Shown here one piece after another: positions 5,573 to 26,607 of a DNA stretch of 64,000 bases. A model generated the notes under the pieces. It made no database searches. It saw nothing but the letters and a program-made list of their open reading frames with translations, and had not been told where the DNA came from. This DNA comes from Oceanicaulis sp. (GTDB lineage: Bacteria; Pseudomonadota; Alphaproteobacteria; Caulobacterales; Maricaulaceae). The stretch's first letter is position 1. The number at the start of each line of letters is the position of its first letter. Position numbers and translations under genes: made by a program. The DNA is taken from NCBI GenBank assembly GCA_965284655.1, contig OZ260104.1, positions 2,283,395 to 2,347,394 on the forward strand. Direction: 5' to 3'.

Positions 5573-6589
5573 TTGACTACGACGCCGAAAACCCTTCCCG
5601 AGCTTGATCCGTCGCGCGCCGCGATCGTTGACCAGTTTGGCGGCGAGATTGCGCCGCTGGACCCCATCGGGGCGCAGGTGAGCGGGATTGATCTGACGTC
5701 AAAGGACGTGCCGGCGCCCGAGCTGGTCGACGCGCTGGAACGTGAGATGGCCGATCGCGGCTTTCTCGTGTTCAAGAACAAACGGCAGCTGGACGTGGAT
5801 GATTTCCTGCGCGCCAGCTGCTGGTGGGGCGGCAAGGCCCTGCACAGCACCCACGGCGTTCATCCGGCGACGCCGGGCGGCAATCCCCACATTTTCCGCC
5901 TGTCAAACGACCGCACCCACGGCATTCCGGGCGTGGGGCCGCAATGGCATAATGACGGCAGTTTCAACGCCGACACGTTCTCTCATTCCGGCTACCACAT
6001 CATCCGGCCGGCCGAAAAAGGCGGCGGGACGTATTTCGCGCACCAGGCCATGGCCTATGACGCGCTGCCCGATGATCTGAAGGAGCGCTGGAGCCGGCTC
6101 TTCTCGGTGAACTCCGCGTCCGGCGTGGTTCACCCCATGGTGCATGAACACCCGGTATCGGGCCGCAAATGCATCTGGCTGCATCTGGGGATGACGGGCG
6201 CCGTCATCGAAAAACGCGCCGATTCGGACGGGTTCCGACTGCTGGACGCCGATGAGATGAGACAGCTCTTCCGCGACTACAACGACATCCTCAACGCCGG
6301 GCTGGAGGACGGATACGCCATCGGCTTTGAGTATCAGGAAAACGACTGCGTCTTCATCGACAATCTCGCCGTGGCCCACCGCGCCGCGCCTCAGGCGCAT
6401 CTACCGGCCCACGAGCAAGGCTTGCGGATCATGCACCGCAGCACCGTGAAAGGCGTCCAGGATCTGGCGCCCGGCTTCGGCCTGCCGCAACACCTGAATA
6501 TCCTCGCGCCCAGCCCGTTTGGAGACGGCGTCTGGCAGGCCGGCGGCGTCGGCTTCCGCTGGGACGATCACATTCCGATGCAGAACTAG
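5573..6589 (+). CDS. TauD/TfdA-family Fe(II)/2-oxoglutarate dioxygenase
   Basis: 338 aa. HxD iron motif in WHNDGSF and a distal His in AVAHRA. TTG start 8 nt after AGGAG. Confidence 0.8.
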   Translation: MTTTPKTLPELDPSRAAIVDQFGGEIAPLDPIGAQVSGIDLTSKDVPAPELVDALEREMADRGFLVFKNKRQLDVDDFLRASCWWGGKALHSTHGVHPATPGGNPHIFRLSNDRTHGIPGVGPQWHNDGSFNADTFSHSGYHIIRPAEKGGGTYFAHQAMAYDALPDDLKERWSRLFSVNSASGVVHPMVHEHPVSGRKCIWLHLGMTGAVIEKRADSDGFRLLDADEMRQLFRDYNDILNAGLEDGYAIGFEYQENDCVFIDNLAVAHRAAPQAHLPAHEQGLRIMHRSTVKGVQDLAPGFGLPQHLNILAPSPFGDGVWQAGGVGFRWDDHIPMQN

Positions 6590-14981: not shown

Positions 14982-16649
14982 ATGGCCGCCGATCGGGGCG
15001 CGGAGGACTCCGCGCATGCACTCAAAACTAGCGATACGAAAGTCATCGCGGCCGCCTCACTCGGCACCATGTTCGAGTGGTTCGATTTCTACCTTTATGG
15101 CCTGCTCGCGAGCTACATATCGGTCCAGTTCTTTTCGGGGGTCAACGAAACCACCGGCTTCATCCTTGCGCTGGCGGCTTTCGCAGCGGGTTTCGCGATC
15201 CGGCCGCTGGGCTCCATAGTCTTTGGCCGGATCGGCGACATTGTCGGCCGAAAATACACGTTTCTGGTGACGATGGGTCTGATGGGTCTGTCGACGTTCG
15301 CGGTCGGTTTCCTTCCGAGCTACGAGACGATCGGCATCGCCGCGCCCATCATCCTCGTCACGTTGCGGCTGATCCAGGGGCTCGCGGTCGGCGGCGAGTA
15401 CGGGGGAGCGGTGACCTATGTCGCCGAACACGCCCCCCAGGGCAAACGAGGCTTCTACACCAGCTTCATCCAGACCACGGCGACGATCGGGCTGTTTGTC
15501 GCGCTGCTGCTTGTCATAGGATTGCGCGCCCTGATCGGCGAGGACGCGTTCGCCGAATGGGGGTGGCGCATACCCTTCTTGTCTTCAATCCTGCTCTTGA
15601 CGATTTCGCTCTGGATCCGCTTCCAGCTCAGCGAAAGCCCGACCTTCAAGAAGATGAAGGCCGAGGGCAGAACTTCGAAAGCGCCCCTGGCCGAAGCATT
15701 CGGGCGCTGGTCGAACCTCAAATATGTATTGGTGGCCTTGCTGGGCGGCGTCGCGGGCCAGGCCGTCATTGGCTATACTGGCCAGTTCTACACCCTGTTC
15801 TTTCTGGAACGGATCGCCGATATCGACCCGGCGACCTCGAATATTCTCCTGGTGATCGCACTGATCATCGCCACACCCACCTTCGTGTTCTTCGGGTGGC
15901 TGAGCGACAAGATCGGCCGCAAGACCATCATCATGACCGCGTGCGTACTGGCGGTGTTCACCCTGTTCCCGCTGTTCAAGGTCTTAACCTGGGCGGCCAA
16001 CCCGGACATGGCGGATGCGGTTCGCAACGCCCCGGTCACCGTTGTTGCAGACCATGACGAGTGTTCGCTTCAGTTTGATCCGATCGGGCGTAACACGTTC
16101 GACGAATCCAGCTGCGACATCGCCAAGGCCTACCTTGCCCGCAACGGCATCAATTACGCGAACGCTGACGCTCCTGCAGGGACCATCGCCACGGTCCGGA
16201 TCGGGGATGTCATACTGTCAACGCCGGACCCCGCCGGTCTCAGCGCCGCAGAGCGCACAAGCGCCGTCGCAGAATTCCGCGCCGAGGTCGGCGATGCGCT
16301 TGTCGCCGCCGGCTATCCCAGCGAAGCCGACCCGGACAGCATTAACAGGCCGCTCGTCATCGCGGTCATCGTGGCCATCATGCTTATGGTCACGGCTGCC
16401 TATGCGCCGCTTGCGGCCATGCTCGTCGAGCTGTTCCCGGCGCGGATTCGCTACACTTCAATGTCGCTGCCCTATCACATCGGGAATGGCTGGTTCGGAG
16501 GTTTCCTGCCCACGGTCGCCTTCGCCATGGTCGCCGCCACGGGCAATATCTATTACGGCCTCTGGTATCCGGTGCTGATCGCGGGGATGACCGCTGTGGT
16601 CGGCATCCTCTTCCTGCCGGAGACCTTCAGGAGAAACATCGATGAGTGA
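14982..16649 (+). CDS. MFS transporter, metabolite:H+ symporter (MHS) family, with a ~115-aa insert
   Basis: MFEWFDFYLYG and GRIGDIVGRK motifs. An extra soluble segment (aa ~339-456, nt 15996..16349) sits between predicted TM9 and TM10. Confidence 0.85.
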   Translation: MAADRGAEDSAHALKTSDTKVIAAASLGTMFEWFDFYLYGLLASYISVQFFSGVNETTGFILALAAFAAGFAIRPLGSIVFGRIGDIVGRKYTFLVTMGLMGLSTFAVGFLPSYETIGIAAPIILVTLRLIQGLAVGGEYGGAVTYVAEHAPQGKRGFYTSFIQTTATIGLFVALLLVIGLRALIGEDAFAEWGWRIPFLSSILLLTISLWIRFQLSESPTFKKMKAEGRTSKAPLAEAFGRWSNLKYVLVALLGGVAGQAVIGYTGQFYTLFFLERIADIDPATSNILLVIALIIATPTFVFFGWLSDKIGRKTIIMTACVLAVFTLFPLFKVLTWAANPDMADAVRNAPVTVVADHDECSLQFDPIGRNTFDESSCDIAKAYLARNGINYANADAPAGTIATVRIGDVILSTPDPAGLSAAERTSAVAEFRAEVGDALVAAGYPSEADPDSINRPLVIAVIVAIMLMVTAAYAPLAAMLVELFPARIRYTSMSLPYHIGNGWFGGFLPTVAFAMVAATGNIYYGLWYPVLIAGMTAVVGILFLPETFRRNIDE

Positions 16650-17955
16650 CCGCGCCTCACAGGGCGGGGCGACCCGGCGCGGCTTCCTGGCGGCGACGGC
16701 TGCCGCTCCGCTCGCCGCCGGCGTCGCGCCGCCCGCGGTCGCCCGGATTGACCCTGATCAGGTCGCGCTGGACCTGCAGCGCTATATCGATTTCGGCGCC
16801 AAGCAGTCTGGCGGGCCGGGCGACGAGGCCTGCGGCGCCTGGCTCCAGTCAGAGCTTGAGGCCGCAGGCTTCAGCACCGAACGCCAGTATTTCTCCGCGC
16901 CGTGGTTCGAGGCTTCGTCCGCCGAGCTGACGGCCGGCGGTGTCCGAGCGCCGGTCTGGCCGCAACCCATCGTGCAGACCACGCCGCCCGGCGGACTAAC
17001 CGCACCGATTGTGCGCGTCGACGCAAAAGGGCGCGCCGCGGCGCCTCTGGAGGGTGCGATCGCGCTCATTGATCTGTCCCATGCGCGCTGGTCGTCCATG
17101 TTCTGGCCTGGTGTCGCCGGCCCGGTTGCCGCGGCCTTCCAAGGCGGCGCTGCAGCCTGCGTGATCGTCACCAATGGTCCGAGCGGCAAGATCATCGCCC
17201 TCAATACGGACGGCCGCGAGCCGCTCTATCCAGACCCCATGGCCCTCATCGCCCCTGACGAAGCCGCCTCGGCTTTCGCCGCAGCGAGCGAGGGTCGCGA
17301 GGCGACCCTGACGGTGGCGGGGCAGGGGGGGAGGCGCCAGGCATTTAACCTGGTTGGACGCCTTGATCGGGGACGTGGCCGCTGGCTTGTTGTCTCAACG
17401 CCTCGGTCAGGCTGGTTCACCTGCGCGGCGGAGCGCGGCGGCGGCGTGGCGGCCTGGCTTCATATCGCACGCTGGGCGGCGCGGTCCGCCCCGGACTACG
17501 ACATCGCGCTGGTCTGCAATTCCGGGCACGAATACCAGTATCTCGGCGCTGAGGAATTGTTGCACTCCGTCGCCCCCAGACCGGAGCAAACCGCATTCTG
17601 GCTTCATCTGGGCGCCAATCTCGCCGCACACGACTGGCATGAGGGCGTCGGCGAAATTCGCCCCCTCCCGGGCACGGACTCCCAGCGTTATCTCGTGGTC
17701 AGCCCGCCTCTTGTTGAGGCCGCGCGTGAAGAGTTCGCCGGGCTCGCCGGGCTTGAAGCCGCCTATTCAAGCGAGATCCTATCGGCAGGTGAGCTGACCA
17801 ATGTGATTGAAGCCGGCTATGCGCCTGTCGCAGGCGTGTTCGGCGTGCATCGCTTTCACCACGTTCAAGACGACGATGAACGCTGTGTCTCTGCAGCCGC
17901 CGTTGCGCGGACCACCGCAGCGTTCCAGCGTCTTCTTGAACGCGCGCTTCTATGA
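16642..17955 (+). CDS. Tat-exported protein, possibly a divergent PA-domain/M28-peptidase-like scaffold
   Basis: Twin-arginine motif TRRGFLAATAAAPLAAG. Overlaps the MHS gene end by 8 nt. The M28-like layout is recognised only loosely by eye, without clear metal ligands. Confidence 0.5.
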   Translation: MSDRASQGGATRRGFLAATAAAPLAAGVAPPAVARIDPDQVALDLQRYIDFGAKQSGGPGDEACGAWLQSELEAAGFSTERQYFSAPWFEASSAELTAGGVRAPVWPQPIVQTTPPGGLTAPIVRVDAKGRAAAPLEGAIALIDLSHARWSSMFWPGVAGPVAAAFQGGAAACVIVTNGPSGKIIALNTDGREPLYPDPMALIAPDEAASAFAAASEGREATLTVAGQGGRRQAFNLVGRLDRGRGRWLVVSTPRSGWFTCAAERGGGVAAWLHIARWAARSAPDYDIALVCNSGHEYQYLGAEELLHSVAPRPEQTAFWLHLGANLAAHDWHEGVGEIRPLPGTDSQRYLVVSPPLVEAAREEFAGLAGLEAAYSSEILSAGELTNVIEAGYAPVAGVFGVHRFHHVQDDDERCVSAAAVARTTAAFQRLLERALL

Positions 17956-19675: not shown

Positions 19676-20413
19676 TCAGGCAGCCAGACTGTGCTGTCTG
19701 ACTAATGCAAACCGGTCTCCGAAATCACGACGCGCGGGCTTACGCAGCCGGCAGCTGACGCCACTCAGCAAGCGCGGCTTTGCGAAGGTCTTGAAACGGC
19801 CGCGCTGTTTGATTGATCGATCGTGATTGAGTTGGTTCTGGACGCAGGCATGGGTGGCGGCGAACTTCTGCAGACTTCGCATTCGCCGAAGCCGGGCCAT
19901 CGCGCGCTCGCGTCTTCGGAAAGGTCGGATTGAGTTTTCGCCGCTGTTGTTTTCATGCCGGCCCGTGATCCGCCTTGCCGCGTTCCCGATCTCATTCATG
20001 GCTGTCCGGTACGAGCGCAGCGTGTCGGTTACGACTTCTTCGGGGCGGCGGCATCGTTTCATGGCTTTCCTGAGGAATTTCAATGCTGAATCCCTGTCGC
20101 GCGTCCTTGTGACATAGAACTCCAGCGCCTCGCCTTCGTGATCGACGGCCTTCCACAGGTAACCTGTCTCGCCGTTGATCTTTGCGAAGACCTCGTCGAG
20201 ATGGCGCCGCCACCGGATCACCTGGCGAAGCTGCTGGGACCGCCGCTTTTTGATCTCCAGCGCCATCAGCGGACTGAACCGGTTCCGCCAGAAGCGCACC
20301 CTCTCATGGCTTATGTCGATCCGGTGCTCGTGCAGCAGGTCCTCCACTTTCCTCAGCGACAGCGGAAAGCGGACATACATCATCGCCAGACGAATGATTT
20401 CGGACGAAGCCAT
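19676..20413 (-). CDS. IS6-family DDE transposase
   Basis: HLDEVFAKINGE (D), VVTDTLRSY (D), NSGENS (E) and RRMRSLQKFA are characteristic of IS6/IS26-type transposases. The ORF reads through the left inverted repeat. Confidence 0.85.
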   Translation of the reverse strand: MASSEIIRLAMMYVRFPLSLRKVEDLLHEHRIDISHERVRFWRNRFSPLMALEIKKRRSQQLRQVIRWRRHLDEVFAKINGETGYLWKAVDHEGEALEFYVTRTRDRDSALKFLRKAMKRCRRPEEVVTDTLRSYRTAMNEIGNAARRITGRHENNSGENSIRPFRRRERAMARLRRMRSLQKFAATHACVQNQLNHDRSIKQRGRFKTFAKPRLLSGVSCRLRKPARRDFGDRFALVRQHSLAA

Positions 20414-20493
20414 TAAATGCCTGAACGGATTGCTCGTCCGCGAACGCTACGGAGCCGGGCAGGGCGCCTCAAGCGGTCTTCCTCTGACAGAGC
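19693..20493 (-). mobile_element. IS6-family insertion sequence (about 0.8 kb), apparently intact; ends approximate
   Basis: Single transposase ORF. Imperfect terminal inverted repeats share the core TGTC(A/T)GA(C/G)(G/T)AA at 19695..19705 and (reverse complement) 20479..20489. Confidence 0.65.
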
Positions 20494-20510
20494 GGCGGGA
20501 GCGGCTATTC

Positions 20511-22043
20511 CTAGCGGCGCGGATCAAACCAGAGCGCCGCAATGCGTTCACCGTCATCAACCAGTTCGACGGTGTAGCTGATGGTCCATTCCGGCGCGCG
20601 TGAGGCGAGCATGGCGCCGCCGCCCGCCCGGCCGGACATGGGCGCGGGCATCGCGTCCAGCGACAGGCCTGGCGGCAAGGACGCCTCCAGCTCTGCGCGG
20701 TCGGGCAGGTTGGTGGCCCCCATCGCCTGAGCCATGGCCATAGCTTCAGTGATCGAGCCAGACTGCACCGGACCGCTGGCGACCGCCGCCGGCTCGCCCG
20801 GAGCCAGCCCGCGCCCCGTCAGGATAACCGTGCCGCCCTGCCAGCTGAAATGGCCGGCCGCACTACCCGCTGGCAGGTCGCCCGCATCAAGACCCTCACA
20901 CGCCTGTATCACCGTGTGCATGAGGTAATCGGCGTCAAGGCCGCGCAGCCGACCGTCGGCATGGTGAATTTCAAGCTCAGCATGGTCGGTCACCGCGCGT
21001 GCGGGAGCCTCGCCGCTATTGCGGTATGCTGCGTCACCGGCAGCCGCGATTTGCATCATCGTATCGACCGGATCGCCGATCGCCGTGCCAAGCAGATAGT
21101 TTCCGGCCTGCACCGCCGCCCAGCCCGCAGCGCCGCCAGCGCCTCTGGCCAGCGACGGTGCGCGGGCGAAAATCTGTCCGATCTGACGGCCCATCGAAAC
21201 CGCGTCGCTGGCCTGCCCGGCAGCTGTCACCACATCCGCAGCATTTACCAGACCGGGAGCAAAGCTCGCGTGCTCGCCATTGGCGAAGCCCTCCGGAACC
21301 GGGGTGATAGTGCTCCAGTCTATGGGGCCGTTGAACGAATGGTTGATCGTGTTCCAGCGCCGGTTCATGTCCTGATAGGCGTCGAAGGCGAGATCACGCA
21401 GCGCGCCGCAGACGTCTTCCATATCGCTGTCATCAATCTCGCTGGCGCGCGGAAACGCCATGAAATTGAGCGGTGCGACATGGGTTGTCGTCGAATAGTC
21501 CATGCGCAGCATTCCGCGCCCACCCGCATCCTCAACCATCTGGCGATCGTCGCAATAATTGGGTCCGGGCACCCATGACCGGGCTTCGCCGTGGAGGTAT
21601 ATGACAGCGCGTTCAAGCGCCTGGTTGATAACGATCCGGCTGCGTTGCTCGACGCCCATAAAAGGGCCGGCGCCGGTCTCTACCGTCATGGCGACGATAC
21701 GCGTCCGCCCGCGCATGTCGTGATGGCCGCCATTGTCGCAGGTTGGCGGCTCCCCGGCCTGCACATAGGCTGCGCGTACAGATGCGCGAGCAAGGAAATC
21801 ATTGTCGATACCGTTGTCCGAGCCGATTTGCCTGTCCTCCAGCATCGCCTCGTGAAGCCCGGCCCTTACCGGATAAGCCCATGTGCCCTCTTGCTCCTGC
21901 AATGCTGTCATGCCTGGCATGCCCGACTGCTGCATGGCTTCCATCATCGCCTGCGCGTCAGGCGCGGGTTGGGCGGACGCATGAGGAAGGCACAGTGCAA
22001 CAATGCCGGCGGATGCCGCCAGCCGGATATTGAGACAGGACAT
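20511..22043 (-). CDS. secreted hypothetical protein (P5 of the island operon)
   Basis: The ATG at 22043 is preceded by AAGGAGG. Signal peptide MSCLNIRLAASAGIVALCLPHASAQ. No motif recognised in 510 aa. Confidence 0.6.
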   Translation of the reverse strand: MSCLNIRLAASAGIVALCLPHASAQPAPDAQAMMEAMQQSGMPGMTALQEQEGTWAYPVRAGLHEAMLEDRQIGSDNGIDNDFLARASVRAAYVQAGEPPTCDNGGHHDMRGRTRIVAMTVETGAGPFMGVEQRSRIVINQALERAVIYLHGEARSWVPGPNYCDDRQMVEDAGGRGMLRMDYSTTTHVAPLNFMAFPRASEIDDSDMEDVCGALRDLAFDAYQDMNRRWNTINHSFNGPIDWSTITPVPEGFANGEHASFAPGLVNAADVVTAAGQASDAVSMGRQIGQIFARAPSLARGAGGAAGWAAVQAGNYLLGTAIGDPVDTMMQIAAAGDAAYRNSGEAPARAVTDHAELEIHHADGRLRGLDADYLMHTVIQACEGLDAGDLPAGSAAGHFSWQGGTVILTGRGLAPGEPAAVASGPVQSGSITEAMAMAQAMGATNLPDRAELEASLPPGLSLDAMPAPMSGRAGGGAMLASRAPEWTISYTVELVDDGERIAALWFDPRR

Positions 22044-22062
22044 CGAGCGCCTCCTTGACGGT

Positions 22063-23937
22063 CTATTCCAGAGTGACATTGGCGGAACCGCCGGCCGGTA
22101 CGGTCACCGCCGTGCGTTCACCCTGGCCCCATACGATGACATAATCGCCCGCCGGCAGGTCGATCAGCGCCCCCGGACGCCCTTGCGCGACTTCATGGCC
22201 TTCAGCGTCGAGTACAGCGAAGCGGGTGGCCACCGCCTGCAGGAGCGCCTCGCTGAGGGACGCCGCATCCGCCGCGCTGAAATACGCCCCTCCGCCCATT
22301 TCGGCCCAGGCCGCGAACTCGGCCTGCAGCGCCGGGTCATTGATGGCGAAGCCCACAATATTGACGGTGATGTCCCAGTCGCGCTCCCGCAGCGCCGTGA
22401 TCGCGGCGGCTGCGTCACCGTCACACGTCTCTTCGCCATCGGTGAGCAGGATGAGCAGGCGCCTTCCAGTGACATTGGCAAGGTCGGACGCCGCCAGCGC
22501 TACGGATGCGCCTAGCGGAGTGCGCGCCAGATTCATCGCGTTGACGCCATTGATCGTCCGGGCCGCTTCGTCCGGATCCAACGGTCCCAGAGGAATTTCG
22601 AGATCAGTCCGGCAGGAGCCGCTTTCGCGATGCCCGAACACCCGCAGAGCGAACCCGGCGCCGGCTGGAATCGTGTCGGCCACGAGTCCGGCTAGCGTCT
22701 GGCGGGCGATTTCCACGCGGCGTGTTCCGTCAATGCGTTGCAACATGGAGCCCGACGCGTCGAAAATGACACCCACCGCGTCGTCCGGGCCCAGATTGGT
22801 GCGGCCCTGTTCCACCAGAAGGGTTCCCGGCGGTTCGGACGCCGGCAGCACGCGGATCGCGCGGCGTGCCATCTCGCGTCCGCCCCGCGCGGTGTAGATC
22901 AGCTGAAAGTCGCCCTCCTGCGGCGGGGCGATGAGGCGTGTTTGCGCTTCGGCAGGGTCGATATAGCGGTAGGCTAGGCTGGTGTTTTCCTCATCAACGA
23001 CACTGATGATGTCGCCGCGATTGCCGGCGCCGTCCCAGACTGCGGCGAATTCTTCCAGAGCCGTGACCTCATCGGGAGCATCCAGATCGACGCGCGCCTC
23101 GATAATCTCCACTGGAGACCGCCCGATTATTCGTTCACCAGAGATATAGACCACATCCAGCGGGCCGGTTTCGACCGGTGCGGTGAGGGCGGTGGCGCTG
23201 TCCTCGGAATTGCCGGTATAGCCATAGCTGGCGCCGCGGATACGCTCGCCATCACGTTGTGCGAATGTGACCATGTCTTGGGCATTGCGAGGGCCTTCCC
23301 AGATCACGCGCAGCAGTCCGCCAGCATGGATTTGCGCTGGATGGCTCAGCGTCGCCGAAATGGCGCCGACTGTCACCGGGGCACGGGCCAGGATGGTTGA
23401 GCCGCTCACATAGACGAAGTCATATTCGCCTGCGTCCATTGGCGCACGCAGACGGGCCGGGCCGCCTCGCGCGTTGCCGGTATAGAAATAGCTCGATCCG
23501 CGGATCGGATCGCCGTCGCGTTCAGCGAACGTTATGCGGTCACTGCGGCTATCCGGGCCCGTCCAGCCGATTTCGATACTCTCTCCTGCGTCAACGGCCG
23601 CCGGCGCCTCCAGAGCAGCGTCGGGAAGAAACACTGTCAGCGGTCGGCTTGCGCGCACCTCGCGTTCGAACACGTAGACGATCTCGTAGCTGCCCGGCGC
23701 TTCGGGCACATTGACCGCTAGCGGGTTGCTGTTGGCATAGGCATAGGTAGCGCGGCCAGCTCCTGCGGGGCGGATTTCGACAAGCCCTCCGGTGTCCTGC
23801 GGCGCGGTCCAGCTCACCTCGATTGTCTCGCGGATGTGGGCGCGCGCGGGCGCATCCAGCGCGTATTCCTGCGCGCCCGCCATCGCCCACAGGCCGGAAA
23901 AAACTGCGAGCATCGCGGGCAGACCTCTGACAATCAT
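22063..23937 (-). CDS. secreted von Willebrand factor A (VWA/MIDAS) protein with four N-terminal tandem domains (P4)
   Basis: Signal peptide. Four ~85-aa repeats. MIDAS residues DASGSM (aa 393-398), T473 (ARTPLG) and LLTDGEE (D500). C-terminal ~55-aa beta-rich tail. Confidence 0.8.
   Translation of the reverse strand: MIVRGLPAMLAVFSGLWAMAGAQEYALDAPARAHIRETIEVSWTAPQDTGGLVEIRPAGAGRATYAYANSNPLAVNVPEAPGSYEIVYVFEREVRASRPLTVFLPDAALEAPAAVDAGESIEIGWTGPDSRSDRITFAERDGDPIRGSSYFYTGNARGGPARLRAPMDAGEYDFVYVSGSTILARAPVTVGAISATLSHPAQIHAGGLLRVIWEGPRNAQDMVTFAQRDGERIRGASYGYTGNSEDSATALTAPVETGPLDVVYISGERIIGRSPVEIIEARVDLDAPDEVTALEEFAAVWDGAGNRGDIISVVDEENTSLAYRYIDPAEAQTRLIAPPQEGDFQLIYTARGGREMARRAIRVLPASEPPGTLLVEQGRTNLGPDDAVGVIFDASGSMLQRIDGTRRVEIARQTLAGLVADTIPAGAGFALRVFGHRESGSCRTDLEIPLGPLDPDEAARTINGVNAMNLARTPLGASVALAASDLANVTGRRLLILLTDGEETCDGDAAAAITALRERDWDITVNIVGFAINDPALQAEFAAWAEMGGGAYFSAADAASLSEALLQAVATRFAVLDAEGHEVAQGRPGALIDLPAGDYVIVWGQGERTAVTVPAGGSANVTLE
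22843..23865 (-). repeat. four tandem ~85-aa protein-domain repeats inside P4
   Basis: Recurrent pattern L(D/E)AP..V.AG..I.(V/I).W.GP....D.I.......G..I....Y.YTG.......L.AP...G.Y...Y......I..R.P(V/L).V, read from the translation (aa ~25-365). Confidence 0.6.
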
Positions 23938-23952
23938 GGCCTCATCCTTCGC

Positions 23953-24951
23953 TCAAGGTTCGACAAATCGGTAATGCTGGTGGCTGCGATACGCCGAGCC
24001 GTTCCAGTAGATGCTGTAAAGTTCCTTTTCGAAGCGCTCGAGTACGAGCACATCGCCGACCGTCTCCGGCCGCGGCGCTTCGCCGTCCCAGCCGGTCATC
24101 ACCGCATCAATCGGCGCCACCCGCCAGGCCTCCACCGAGCCAAAAAGCCCATCGTCCATGGGCGAGCCCGGAACCGGGCCATCAACGCCCAACACGTCCA
24201 GCCAGGCGCCGGCCCGGCAGATGGCTACGCCACGCGCGCCATCAGAAATGCGGCGCACGAAGACAGCCTGATCATGGGCGTCATCGCCATCGAAATCGCC
24301 GCCAACCATCCGCGGCGCAATGCGCGCATCGAGCGCATACTGCGCGTCAAGCCCGCATCCGCGAATGATCTCGACCTCCTCGGGCAGGAATTCGAGACCG
24401 CCGGCATCGGCTTCGGCAGCCATGTCCTCGTCGGTCTTCGGCCACATCAGGCAGGCGGAGTATTGCAGATAGCCGATGCTGGCCTGTTCACCGGCGCCGA
24501 GATCGGACAACGCCATCTCCTCGATCCGCAGCCAGCCCATCCCGGTCGCCGGTTCGCCGTCGCCTGGCGGATTGAAGGTGAAGACGCGTTCATGCTGGGG
24601 CGCATTCACCTCGCCGGCATTCGCGCCCGTATTGTCTGTATTGCGGAAATGCCAGCCGTAAAGCTCACGCGGTTCGGGCAGGCCGCCCCGCATGGGCGAG
24701 ACTGGCAAAAGATCATTGTCCGCGTCATCAAGCACCAGTATCCGCCAGCCCCAACGCGCCCGGGAAAGCCCCAGGCGCAAACCGTCGGCCACCGGCTCGA
24801 CAAAGTTGTGACCGCCATAAGCCTCACCGGTTATTGGAACGGCATGAAGTGCGGGGCGTCCTTCGCAACTGAGCGTCTGGGCGGCGGAATGGCCAGTGCA
24901 GACCAGCCCCGCCAGTCCGGCGATAACCGCAATGCGCCAGCAGCTCGCCAT
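23953..24951 (-). CDS. secreted hypothetical protein with a DFDGDD (FG-GAP/VCBS-like) motif (P3)
   Basis: Signal peptide MASCWRIAVIAGLAGLVCTGHSAAQ. GGDFDGDDAHDQAV motif. 3-nt gap from P2 and 15 nt from P4. Confidence 0.6.
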   Translation of the reverse strand: MASCWRIAVIAGLAGLVCTGHSAAQTLSCEGRPALHAVPITGEAYGGHNFVEPVADGLRLGLSRARWGWRILVLDDADNDLLPVSPMRGGLPEPRELYGWHFRNTDNTGANAGEVNAPQHERVFTFNPPGDGEPATGMGWLRIEEMALSDLGAGEQASIGYLQYSACLMWPKTDEDMAAEADAGGLEFLPEEVEIIRGCGLDAQYALDARIAPRMVGGDFDGDDAHDQAVFVRRISDGARGVAICRAGAWLDVLGVDGPVPGSPMDDGLFGSVEAWRVAPIDAVMTGWDGEAPRPETVGDVLVLERFEKELYSIYWNGSAYRSHQHYRFVEP

Positions 24952-24954
24952 CGG

Positions 24955-25431
24955 TCAGTTCGTGTTCAGTGCGGCGATCGCCACAGCTGTGCCGCCATTG
25001 TTGGGCATCAGATTGACGGTCGCGATCCGCCCGTCCTTTTCAAATCTGAGCACCTGTGTCGCGGCCGACGGATCCCCTTGGCTGACTTCAGTCCAGCCGA
25101 GCCCGGCCATCTCGTCTTGGTAGAAGCGGGCGATGGTGCTCGCCGAATCCATGGATGTGGCCGCCACCGAAAAGCCCATGCCCGGAAGAGCGTTGGCGCC
25201 GTAGATGTTCAGGCTGTCAGGGACGGGAATATCACCGGGAAAGCCGTCCGGAAGATCCAGATTAGCCCCAGCCTGCGAGCGGACACCGCCAACATTACGG
25301 TCGGTCACCACCATCTCGCCGCCACCATCACCGGCCACATCCGCCTGTGACGGCGCCGGTGCTTCGCCGCATGCCGACAGCGGGACGGTCAGCAGGCACG
25401 CCAGTGACAAAACCCCAAGCATCGATCTCAT
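24955..25431 (-). CDS. small lipoprotein (P2)
   Basis: The ATG at 25431 is preceded by TAAGGAA. MRSMLGVLSLACLLTVPLSAC carries the lipobox LSAC. The track ORF starts at a GTG at 25464, overlapping the P1 stop. Confidence 0.6.
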   Translation of the reverse strand: MRSMLGVLSLACLLTVPLSACGEAPAPSQADVAGDGGGEMVVTDRNVGGVRSQAGANLDLPDGFPGDIPVPDSLNIYGANALPGMGFSVAATSMDSASTIARFYQDEMAGLGWTEVSQGDPSAATQVLRFEKDGRIATVNLMPNNGGTAVAIAALNTN

Positions 25432-25460
25432 GATATTATTCCTTATAGAGGAGGCCAGCT

Positions 25461-25814
25461 TCACGCAGACCCTATCCCCAGTGGAGAAGTGGGAGTTACA
25501 GGAGCAGCTGGCGCGGCGCCTTCAGGGCCGAGGTCCGGCGGCATCCGCCAGAACACCCAGGCGGCGATCAGAGCTGTCGCCATGGCGAACACGATCACCA
25601 GCCCGCCAAGCCATTTCATGCTGGCGCGCCAGCCGAACACGACGGCGATGACAGCAGTGGCCAGGGCGCCGGCCAGCCCGAAAACCATCGCGTCCGCCGG
25701 TCCGGCGAGGCCCCGGCCCTCAGGCACCAGATACCACGCACCGATCGCCGTCCCGGCCACAAACCCGGCAAACGCAGCCAGTACAAAAAGAAGGACCAGA
25801 AGGACCAGGCGCAT
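25461..25814 (-). CDS. small integral membrane protein, ~3 TM helices (P1)
   Basis: 117 aa with three long hydrophobic stretches and a Pro/Ala-rich tail. First gene of the operon. Confidence 0.5.
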   Translation of the reverse strand: MRLVLLVLLFVLAAFAGFVAGTAIGAWYLVPEGRGLAGPADAMVFGLAGALATAVIAVVFGWRASMKWLGGLVIVFAMATALIAAWVFWRMPPDLGPEGAAPAAPVTPTSPLGIGSA

Positions 25815-26094
25815 GATTTGGATATTTCCCCTGCCCGGATGCGCCCGCGGTTCCAGCCGTCTGTCAGCCAGAAAATATATGGTGGCGGATCCGCCCGAAA
25901 ACTGCGGATGGCTTACGCATTAACCACGCTATGATGGGCAATTCTCTGAGCAAAATCAATGCTGATAAATAACACCCGCCAACAGCATTGAAGTCTGTCC
26001 TGTTAAATAGGTAAAAATCTCTTATTTATCGGAAGTATAGGTTGCTTTCGATTTAAAGTGAACGCCATTCACCGGGAGAGGGGTGACGGGCCCT

Positions 26095-26516
26095 GCCAGT
26101 GCTGTCCCATGGCTTTCTTGCGAAATTTCAATGCGGAGTTTTTGTCCCCGGTCTTGGTGACGAAGGACTCTGGCGCTTCGCCCTCGTGATCGACGGCGCG
26201 CCACGGGTCGTGGGTCCCGCCTTTGATCTTCACGAAAACCTCGTCGAGATGCCAACGGCGCGTGTGACCTGCGGGGTGGTGTCAGACGAACCCGAACAGG
26301 TCTCCGAAACCCCGACGCGTAGGCTCGGGCGGCCAATAGCTGACACCGCTCGGCGAGCGCCGCGTTGCAGACGTCTTTGAAGCGAGGCCGGGGTTCGAGG
26401 GATCGCTCGTGATTGAAGTGATTGTCGACTTAGGGCGTGAGCGACGACGAACTTCTGCAGACAGTGTCGGGGTGTTTCGGGTGATAATCCGAGCCGCGCG
26501 AAATCTGCGGGGTGGG
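26095..26516 (-). mobile_element. two juxtaposed decayed fragments of the same IS6-family element
   Basis: 26100..26265 aligns by eye with the mid-transposase region (20040..20220). 26278..26470 aligns with the left end plus transposase C-terminus (19693..19880), including the TGTCAGACGAA repeat core at 26280..26290. Confidence 0.6.
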
Positions 26517-26607
26517 TGGCGGAGAGGATGGGATTCGAACCCACGATACCCTTTTGAGGTATACTCCCTTAGCAGGGGAGCGCCTTCGACCACTCGGCCA
26601 CCTCTCC
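26517..26607 (-). tRNA. tRNA-Ser (anticodon GCU), long variable arm, encoded CCA
   Basis: The reverse complement GGAGAGGTGGCCGAGTGGTCGAAGGCGCTCCCCTGCTAAGGGAGTATACCTCAAAAGGGTATCGTGGGTTCGAATCCCATCCTCTCCGCCA folds as a cloverleaf. Anticodon loop CTGCTAA. Confidence 0.9.

Follow-up and report, generated by a model that had tools for sequence, protein, structure and literature searches.

We analysed a stretch of 64,000 nucleotides from Oceanicaulis sp. (contig OZ260104.1, positions 2,283,395 to 2,347,394; the whole stretch is referred to as the window), in which a five-gene operon encoding the proteins P1 to P5 is flanked by insertion sequences (IS) of the IS6 family and lies close to a tRNA-Ser gene. 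Sequence comparisons with related loci give good support to the view that IS6 elements relocated this operon from a secretion-adjacent site to its present place beside tRNA-Ser. The cargo itself most likely encodes an envelope-anchored, divalent-cation-dependent ligand-binding complex, which would be integrin-like in its logic. We consider it rather probable that both parts hold together, i.e., that the window harbors a fossil structure relocated by IS6 elements, whose conserved cargo forms an envelope-anchored, cation-dependent ligand-binding complex. Structures of this kind, in which a passenger is bounded by IS6, are known; the present one is a fossil form with an unusual cargo.

The cargo segment (20494..26098, minus strand) has a size of 5.6 kb and comprises a leader, the genes for P1 to P5 and 17 nt past the P5 stop codon. 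It was delimited by a comparison with the closest relative of the locus, which is represented by the metagenome contigs L015, L016 and L099 (the last one derived from a 979-kb contig) and whose P5 homologue is 93% identical. On these contigs, the genes P1-P2-P3-P4-P5 occur in the same order and are co-oriented with the upstream type II secretion operon gspF-G-H-I-J-K-L-M-N, beginning 236 nt downstream of gspN. Genes for a helix-turn-helix (HTH) protein, a DUF2178 protein and a PadR protein follow downstream, and no IS is present. When L015 was compared by blastn with the whole window, one colinear match was obtained (L015:5930-11554 corresponding to window positions 26098-20490, 81.6% identity over 5642 nt), while the rest of L015 did not give any further match. 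Both ends of the match (20490 and 26098) coincide with the inner edges of the flanking IS sequences. Moreover, the last approximately 20 nt of the cargo on the P1 side (26078-26098) align with the final codons and the stop codon of the L015 gspN gene. Homologues of type II secretion, histidine kinase or response regulator genes were not detected in the window. The identical layout was found in a second sample at 99.69% identity.

A further boundary is the tRNA-Ser(GCU) gene itself (26517..26607, minus strand), which was identified by ARAGORN and by Rfam (60.7 bits) and whose 3′ end abuts the outermost IS6 remnant. Conserved synteny with a Glycocaulis sp. metagenome-assembled genome (MAG; L019) and a Caulobacterales MAG (L020) starts at 26516/26517 and extends in blocks to position ~44500; the identities of ApbC amount to 73% and 71%, respectively. 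As the conserved synteny sets in again precisely at the tRNA 3′ end, the location on the 3′ side of tRNA-Ser(GCU), already proposed in the initial annotation, was corroborated. The homology bounded by IS edges, the gspN vestige and the synteny bounded by the tRNA together point to an IS6-mediated relocation. In principle, the operon could also belong to a genomic island that integrated site-specifically at tRNA-Ser and carries the IS as passengers, in keeping with the facts that the variable region starts at the tRNA 3′ end and that the contigs of both relatives break there. However, no integrase gene turned up when ten large open reading frames (ORFs) were scanned in the 26 kb to the left, which would be the island side; their products comprise esterases and transporters as well as a TonB-dependent receptor and an enzyme of the acyl-CoA-ligase type. 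Moreover, no second copy of the tRNA 3′ end exists within the 64-kb window, even if two to three mismatches are allowed. For these two reasons, a tRNA-targeting integrative island is very doubtful indeed, and this explanation is largely refuted within the window.

The IS on the left side of the cargo (19691..20493, minus strand) is an apparently intact element of 803 bp. Its ends were set by homology breakpoints, the right one by the end of the L015 homology at 20490 and the left one by the beginning of the homology to a remnant on the other side of the operon (fragment B, see below) at 19691. The uninterrupted transposase ORF (19676..20413, minus strand) encodes a DDE enzyme of 245 aa, which matched the IS6 model NF033587 with 141.4 bits (cutoff 125; model positions 10-200 of 202) and PF13610 with an E value of 4.5e-35 in the Pfam search. 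With annotated IS6 transposases encoded by plasmids of marine Rhodobacterales and Mesorhizobium, it shares 62-65% identity. Members of the family are defined by their length and by short, GG-tipped inverted repeats with cTGTt and caaa motifs (PMC7986276). The element of the window agrees with this definition in its length (~700-890 bp in the family) and in a single transposase (213-254 aa) nearly filling the element. Its left end, GTGCTGTCTGACTAATGCAAA, contains the family motifs CTGTC and GCAAA, while the right end (reverse complement), GCTCTGTCAGAGGAAG, contains only CTGTC and is a loose inverted copy of the left end. The inverted repeat is imperfect (10/16 matches by eye) and lacks the GG tip, and the aligner did not report any terminal inverted repeat. 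Thus, the initial description of an apparently intact IS6 element was borne out by both models, with its ends being refined to 19691 and 20493. No 8-bp target duplication is present at this element, since the flanking 8-mers are gccagact and ggcgggag. A simple insertion is therefore not indicated; the lack of a duplication is rather expected of a copy that was involved in a cointegrate or rearrangement. Elements of the IS6 family form replicative cointegrates and also give rise to adjacent deletions and inversions.

On the right side of the operon, two IS6 remnants were identified. Fragment A (26108..26257, minus strand) is an internal piece without either IS end, which covers the transposase residues 67-118. 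By blastn, the window positions 26108-26251 matched the IS positions 20060-20203 (76% identity over 144 nt), and tblastn revealed 65% identity over 52 aa (E 1.3e-14). Fragment B (26267..26516, minus strand) is the left end of another copy, which comprises transposase residues 191-244 and is cut off at the tRNA. Its positions 26276-26462 matched the IS positions 19691-19875 (73% identity over 189 nt), with the inverted-repeat tip GGTGGTGTCAGACGAAC at 26276 preceding the C-terminal portion of the transposase. The tip has G.GCTGTCAGA in common with the left-end tips of IS6 sequences found on a related contig (L110, see below). All IS6-related pieces of the window reside on the same strand and have the same direction as the live IS. 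The fragments A and B are not colinear and thus do not represent one decayed copy. With an identity of about 75% to the live copy, they probably stem from a different or a very old IS6 element. Hence, of the initial claim that decayed fragments of the same IS lie on the right side, the remnants as such and their orientation were confirmed, but they constitute two non-colinear pieces that are too divergent (73-76%) to be assigned to the live copy.

These data also bear on the suggestion that the structure is a pseudo-compound transposon or translocatable unit, which we had to abandon. The flanking IS6 pieces are directly oriented but they are not complete, near-identical copies, as the right-hand "copy" consists of two rearranged fragments. 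The cargo junction at 26098 resides in the interior of an IS rather than at one of its ends, the right-hand IS has lost its outer end by truncation against the tRNA (26516), and the live IS lacks the 8-bp duplication. Since fragment A is devoid of both ends and fragment B has retained only the left one, and considering their identity of 73-76%, pseudo-compound transposition does not occur at this site at the present day.

Another explanation is that the locus is native, i.e., that P1 to P5 were always located beside tRNA-Ser and were merely hit by IS copies, the secretion-adjacent arrangement of the relative being derived. This assumption is in line with the different loci occupied by the module in different lineages, with the GC content and the GC content at third codon positions (GC3) of the cargo, which match those of the host, and with the fact that no relative with an empty site was found. 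However, both ends of the homology to the relative fall at IS edges, the window has retained a match to the 3′ end of gspN, the missing target duplication of the live IS does not fit a simple insertion, and the Maricaulaceae-like synteny breaks exactly at the tRNA. A native locus therefore appears improbable to us.

For the preferred IS6-mediated relocation, the following course of events can be envisaged. Ancestrally, the operon would have followed directly on gspN, the last gene of a type II secretion operon. IS6-family elements would then have landed at both ends of the P1 to P5 block. Rearrangements driven by these elements may have separated the block from the secretion genes and brought it into the variable region 3′ of tRNA-Ser, either by transposition of an IS-cargo-IS unit or by successive replicative events accompanied by deletions or inversions. 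Later on, the right-hand IS copies would have decayed, leaving a fossil rather than a mobile unit.

To judge whether the operon is peculiar to this IS structure, its occurrence in other genomes is decisive. The module P2-P1-P3-P4(-P5) was found without IS in at least ten contexts at unrelated loci. Carriers are the Maricaulis genome L004 and the lineages L009-L012, L017/L018/L101, L102, L106-L108, L110 and L112, as well as L013, in which the module is reshuffled. Considering only loci with a P3 at least 41% identical and with flanks of sufficient length, P2 is located upstream of P3 in 10/13 cases and P1 in 10/14, and P4 lies downstream in five out of eight. Occurrence of the same five genes at this position in IS-free relatives with conserved flanks had been set beforehand as a sign of a native locus; the genes were found as an IS-free block in many relatives, at other loci. 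The module appears to belong to Maricaulaceae-like alphaproteobacteria of marine origin, while homologues of P4 and P3 also occur in some gammaproteobacteria. In at least five lineages, genes for a hybrid histidine kinase, a LuxR-type response regulator and a small lipoprotein (X140) adjoin the module, often in divergent orientation. The initial statement that the operon lacks a regulator is therefore true for the window, which contains no kinase or regulator homologues, but not for several relatives possessing an adjoining two-component system. Likewise, the idea of mobilized cargo has to be modified: the block did change its position, exactly at IS6 boundaries, but it is not peculiar to the IS structure. 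Mobilization did not create anything new here but displaced an accessory module that is conserved.

In an independent lineage, an IS6 element was detected just past P5, in the opposite orientation. On the respective contig (L110:14390-15100, TARA_R110000868 scaffold102358), two tandem sequences resembling IS6 left ends, together with part of an IS6 transposase, are located 100-230 nt past the P5 stop codon. The gene order of this lineage is kinase-regulator-X140-P2-P1-P3-P4-P5, the transposase is 62% identical to that of the window, and with respect to the operon it runs in the opposite direction. The site just after P5 may be hit by IS6 elements repeatedly.

Within the window, the operon is located on the minus strand with the gene order P1, P2, P3, P4, P5 and intergenic gaps of 29, 3, 15 and 19 nt, respectively. 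The Shine-Dalgarno sequence AAGGAGG precedes position 22043, and AAGGA is present ahead of 23937 and of 25431, so that the tight five-gene operon with clear ribosome binding sites originally described was confirmed. P1 to P5 are no chance ORFs, as conserved homologues exist for every protein. Upstream of P1, there is a conserved, AT-richer 5′ leader of ~280 nt (25815..26098, minus strand), which contains the promoter-like sequence TTCACT-17-TATACT (26062-26034). Long blocks of it are conserved in the L015 counterpart (5950-6186), e.g., AACCTATACTTCCGATAAATAAGAG and CCATCAT.GCGTGGTTAATGCG. A search with Rfam disclosed the tRNA only and no match in the leader. The leader could hold a binding site for a regulator or an RNA element.

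P1 (25461..25814, minus strand) is an inner-membrane protein of 117 aa with three hydrophobic segments in the hydropathy scan, a conserved loop VP.G.GLAGPA.A and a proline-rich C-terminal tail, which according to the positive-inside pattern is located in the periplasm. In the homologue P0155, a P1-like membrane domain is fused to the N-terminus of P3 (49% identity over 45 aa, E 3e-10). The fusion, found in one genome, suggests that P1 most likely tethers P3. P2 (24955..25431, minus strand) starts with ATG and is a lipoprotein of 158 aa with the lipobox LSAC. For a near-identical P2 product encoded by L008, and for its homologues, a precomputed Pfam match to PF27226 (AF_1845) exists, a family of which no mention was found in the literature. 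The sequence search of P2 against the PDB did not yield a significant match.

P3 (23953..24951, minus strand) is an exported two-domain protein of 332 aa, which is rich in beta structure and possesses a Sec signal peptide. The homologue alignment revealed the invariant features YGWHFRN..N.G.N.G.VNAPQ, a D-x-D-x-D...D motif (GDFDGDD) and four cysteines. P3 did not match any entry of Pfam (E <=0.1), NCBIfam or the PDB, neither by sequence nor by its family profile. For its structure model, the mean predicted local distance difference test (pLDDT) value was 82.3, and the best Foldseek hit in the PDB had an E value of 0.067, with TM scores of 0.22 or lower and no match to a propeller. No P3 homologues were found on plasmids.

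The N-terminal domain of P3 (GWHFRN..N.G.N.GDVNAPQ), for which no Pfam family exists, also occurs alone, namely at the C-terminal end of exported proteins from soil metagenomes (L164, L165, L171, L173, L175 and others), the N-terminal regions of which are unrelated and include TPR repeats. Besides, a protein of ~230 aa without a Pfam match (Y230) is encoded next to P3 homologues (L013:13886-14578, L100, L105, L113, L114, L123, L127, L128 and L148). These loci mostly lack P1 and P2, and Y230 may be an alternative partner of P3.

P4 (22063..23937, minus strand) is an exported protein of 624 aa, in which a signal peptide and four repeats are followed by a VWA domain with a complete metal ion-dependent adhesion site (MIDAS) and by a short C-terminal beta-rich segment. 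The four repeats of ~88 aa each (W.GP...D.I...Y.Y...L.AP..G.Y..VY) were not reported when the N-terminus was compared with itself by BLAST, but they are visible in a direct alignment and as DNA repeat D3. Residues 390-563 matched PF00092 with 25 bits (cutoff 23.8), and the MIDAS residues D393, S395, S397, T473 and D500 are invariant in 30 homologues. In the PDB, the P4 family profile identified the VWA domains of BatA and BatB (4jdu and 3ibs; E 1.6e-4 and 2.6e-4). More than 586 P4 homologues were found, in Maricaulis, Hyphobacterium, Haliea, Roseovarius and others.

P5 (20511..22043, minus strand), a Sec-exported protein of 510 aa (signal peptide ...ASA|Q), does not contain a known domain. Its alignment is characterized by four invariant cysteines and the invariant C-terminus WFDPRR. 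Homologues of P5 are rare: 20 were obtained by a word-indexed search of 5.8e9 proteins and 28 by an exhaustive profile search of 1.84e9 representatives. By sequence, P5 did not match any PDB entry, and an extended profile matched only the beta-helix part contributed by distant homologues. The core of P5 (profile positions ~134-392) recurs as the N-terminal module of larger proteins, which suggests that it is an undescribed domain family. These distant relatives (P0182-P0197) have sizes of 640-1100 aa and carry the core with conserved C, G, C and T..H..P.NF at their N-terminus; some of them match DUF1565 (beta-helix), though weakly and mostly below the threshold, or have a C-terminal HExxH region of the reprolysin type.

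P3, P4 and P5 share Sec signal peptides and invariant cysteines, and all five products are predicted to leave the cytoplasm. The initial protein descriptions, i.e., a three-transmembrane protein (P1), a lipoprotein with the lipobox LSAC (P2), a four-repeat protein with VWA/MIDAS (P4) and a protein without recognizable motif (P5, neither Pfam family nor PDB sequence match), were thus verified. Regarding P3, the signal peptide and the GDFDGDD motif with its invariant aspartates stood up to the analysis, but the presumed relationship to FG-GAP/VCBS did not, because the motif is single and no profile of these families matched. The assumption that the operon does not belong to a characterized system was upheld as well, as Pfam, NCBIfam, PADLOC, sequence and profile searches of the PDB, and Foldseek disclosed the VWA domain only. 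PADLOC did not reveal any defence system. The cargo fits no characterized system, its resemblance to integrin-like and Bat-like VWA assemblies being confined to the general logic.

How the products might act together can be sketched as follows. P1 to P5 would form an envelope-anchored complex, in which P1 tethers P3, P2 is anchored by its lipid, and P4, with its four beta-rich repeats, and P5, a disulfide-containing protein, are soluble partners. P3 would contribute the acidic D-x-D-x-D motif of the calcium-binding type and P4 the MIDAS metal site, and through these divalent-cation sites the complex may bind a ligand, with a role in adhesion or in capturing a ligand of a surface or matrix. The adjoining hybrid histidine kinase and LuxR-type regulator could switch the module on in many relatives, a control that the copy of this genome would have lost. 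Going one step further, we tentatively raise the possibility that P2-P1-P3-P4-P5 together with the kinase, the LuxR-type regulator and X140 constitute an undescribed, self-contained, membrane-tethered and cation-dependent receptor or adhesin of the integrin-like kind, which moves as a cassette between loci with the aid of IS. Two of its building blocks, P3 and P5, would represent families for which Pfam and the PDB contain no detectable relatives by sequence.

The neighborhood of the closest relative allows a different interpretation, according to which P2 to P5 are type II secretion substrates or surface-displayed cargo, e.g., a secreted adhesin or matrix complex. Substrate genes often adjoin gsp operons, as is the case for pulA and sslE/yghJ. 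The co-oriented block 236 nt downstream of gspN in L015, L016 and L099 would agree with that, as would the Sec signals or lipobox present in all of these proteins and the conserved cysteines of P3, P4 and P5. However, no type II secretion gene was found within 10 kb in any other module-bearing lineage, and the fusion of the inner-membrane protein P1 to P3 in one genome speaks in favor of a periplasmic complex that stays tethered instead of being released. Secretion substrates are therefore, in our opinion, an unlikely interpretation.

The BatA/BatB hits of P4 suggest yet another role, namely a module of the Bat/aerotolerance kind, which would serve envelope homeostasis or cation handling in the periplasm under the control of a two-component system and would not be an adhesin. 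Besides the fact that no solved structures are closer to the P4 VWA domain than BatA and BatB, the linkage of a membrane-embedded hybrid kinase and a LuxR-type regulator in several lineages would be compatible with this function. On the other hand, the operon encodes no MoxR ATPase, DUF58 or TPR partner and the related loci lack ATPase and DUF58 genes, while the similarity to BatA/BatB is weak (E 1.6e-4) and concerns the generic VWA fold only. We judge a Bat-like module to be quite improbable and retain the ligand-binding complex as the preferred function.

Several points weigh against the combined reading of an IS6-mediated relocation and a cation-dependent ligand-binding complex. With respect to the relocation, the gspN vestige is short (~14/21 matches), the IS6 fragments are merely 73-76% identical to the live copy, and because of the junction inside an IS at 26098 the order of events cannot be reconstructed and classical pseudo-compound transposition is undemonstrated. 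No relative with an empty esterase/tRNA-Ser junction was found; a scan with ApbC yielded two informative relatives, and both of these Glycocaulis-like contigs end 523 nt or less from the tRNA. As the cargo has the composition of the host, there is nothing to mark it as recently foreign. As to the function, VWA is the sole recognized domain and lies marginally over the Pfam cutoff, P4 homologues also occur alone, the adjacency to type II secretion genes is confined to one lineage (L015, L016, L099), P3 does not match FG-GAP or VCBS and its model fits no solved fold, and the AlphaFold model of P5 is poor (pLDDT 49.8), rendering its Foldseek search uninformative. Neither experiments nor publications on these families were found in the literature.

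The structure offers a clean, datable case in which IS6 elements moved an entire envelope operon, the host being a free-living marine alphaproteobacterium and thus outside the antibiotic-resistance setting in which these elements are usually studied. It also delimits a cassette consisting of a membrane anchor, a lipoprotein, a protein with a calcium-type motif, a VWA/MIDAS protein and P5, often accompanied by its own two-component regulator, which may offer a defined target for studies on how stalked marine bacteria attach to surfaces. The P3 domain (GWHFRN...VNAPQ) and the P5 core are not covered by a Pfam family and both recur in larger proteins, making them candidates for new domain definitions; the confident model of P3 is also without a match among solved structures.

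In the surroundings of the operon, some further observations were made. At window positions 16642-17955 (plus strand), a protein of 437 aa with a twin-arginine signal (TRRGFLAA) and without a Pfam family is encoded between genes for an MFS transporter and a carboxylesterase. The locus from 8.5 to 19.6 kb contains two carboxylesterase genes, two MFS transporter genes and a gene for a TonB-dependent receptor, as well as a gene that is annotated on the near-identical contig L008 as a TetR regulator. On the other side, the distance between tRNA-Ser and apbC is ~140-250 nt in the window and in L020, while in the Glycocaulis sp. MAG ~2.7 kb including a minus-strand ORF of 608 aa are located between the two genes (L019:615-3330). 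Both sides of the tRNA-Ser gene seem to be insertion-prone.

Finally, the structure and its products were compared with known systems. Examples of pseudo-compound transposons of the IS6 family are Tn610, Tn4003 and Tn2680 (Varani et al. 2021, PMC7986276). The structure in the window has in common with such IS6/IS26 units the direct IS6 flanks, a passenger that elsewhere is free of IS, and an IS nested in or adjoining another IS, as is typical of the family. It differs from them by the presence of a single complete copy, the others being internal or end fragments of 73-76% identity, by the lack of a verifiable 8-bp duplication, by the junction at 26098, which is not an IS end, and by a cargo that is an envelope operon instead of a resistance gene.

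A comparable arrangement exists on 45 plasmids of diatom-associated Pseudosulfitobacter pseudonitzschiae, exemplified by plasmid P6 (L179; NZ_CP087031.1:106137-126188). It encodes a VWA protein of 766 aa with an N-terminal VWA domain followed by five to six P4-type repeats, in an operon with genes for small hypothetical exported or membrane proteins and with a divergent histidine kinase and response regulator, the whole being bracketed by two IS110 transposase genes. The operon of NZ_CP087031.1 and the 44 other plasmids shares with P4 the repeat W.G...D...Y...L.AP..G.YE.R and the VWA domain (31.6% identity over 95% of P4), and with the locus of the window the setting of hypothetical exported and membrane proteins, while the divergent kinase and regulator and the bracketing transposases are further common traits. 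In contrast to P4, the VWA domain comes first, homologues of P3, P5 and P2 are missing, and the flanking elements are IS110 and not IS6. A protein of 323 aa encoded upstream of the VWA gene was considered as a counterpart of P3 but turned out to be unrelated to it.

With pulA- and sslE/yghJ-type genes, the closest relative of the operon shares the position of genes for exported proteins and lipoproteins directly after a gsp operon. Unlike in those cases, the link is limited to one lineage and is broken in the window. BatA and BatB of the Bacteroides aerotolerance operon (PDB 4jdu, 3ibs) resemble P4 in being envelope VWA proteins with a DxSxS...T...D MIDAS, but P4 is exported in soluble form instead of being anchored in the membrane, it has four repeats at its N-terminus, and the MoxR, DUF58 and TPR partners are absent. 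Integrin-type heads, in turn, combine FG-GAP calcium loops with a VWA/beta-I MIDAS. The co-occurrence of a MIDAS VWA protein (P4) and a putative partner with an acidic D-x-D-x-D motif (P3), both extracytoplasmic and disulfide-containing, is reminiscent of this design, from which it departs in that P3 has a single motif with neither an FG-GAP/VCBS match nor a match to a propeller.

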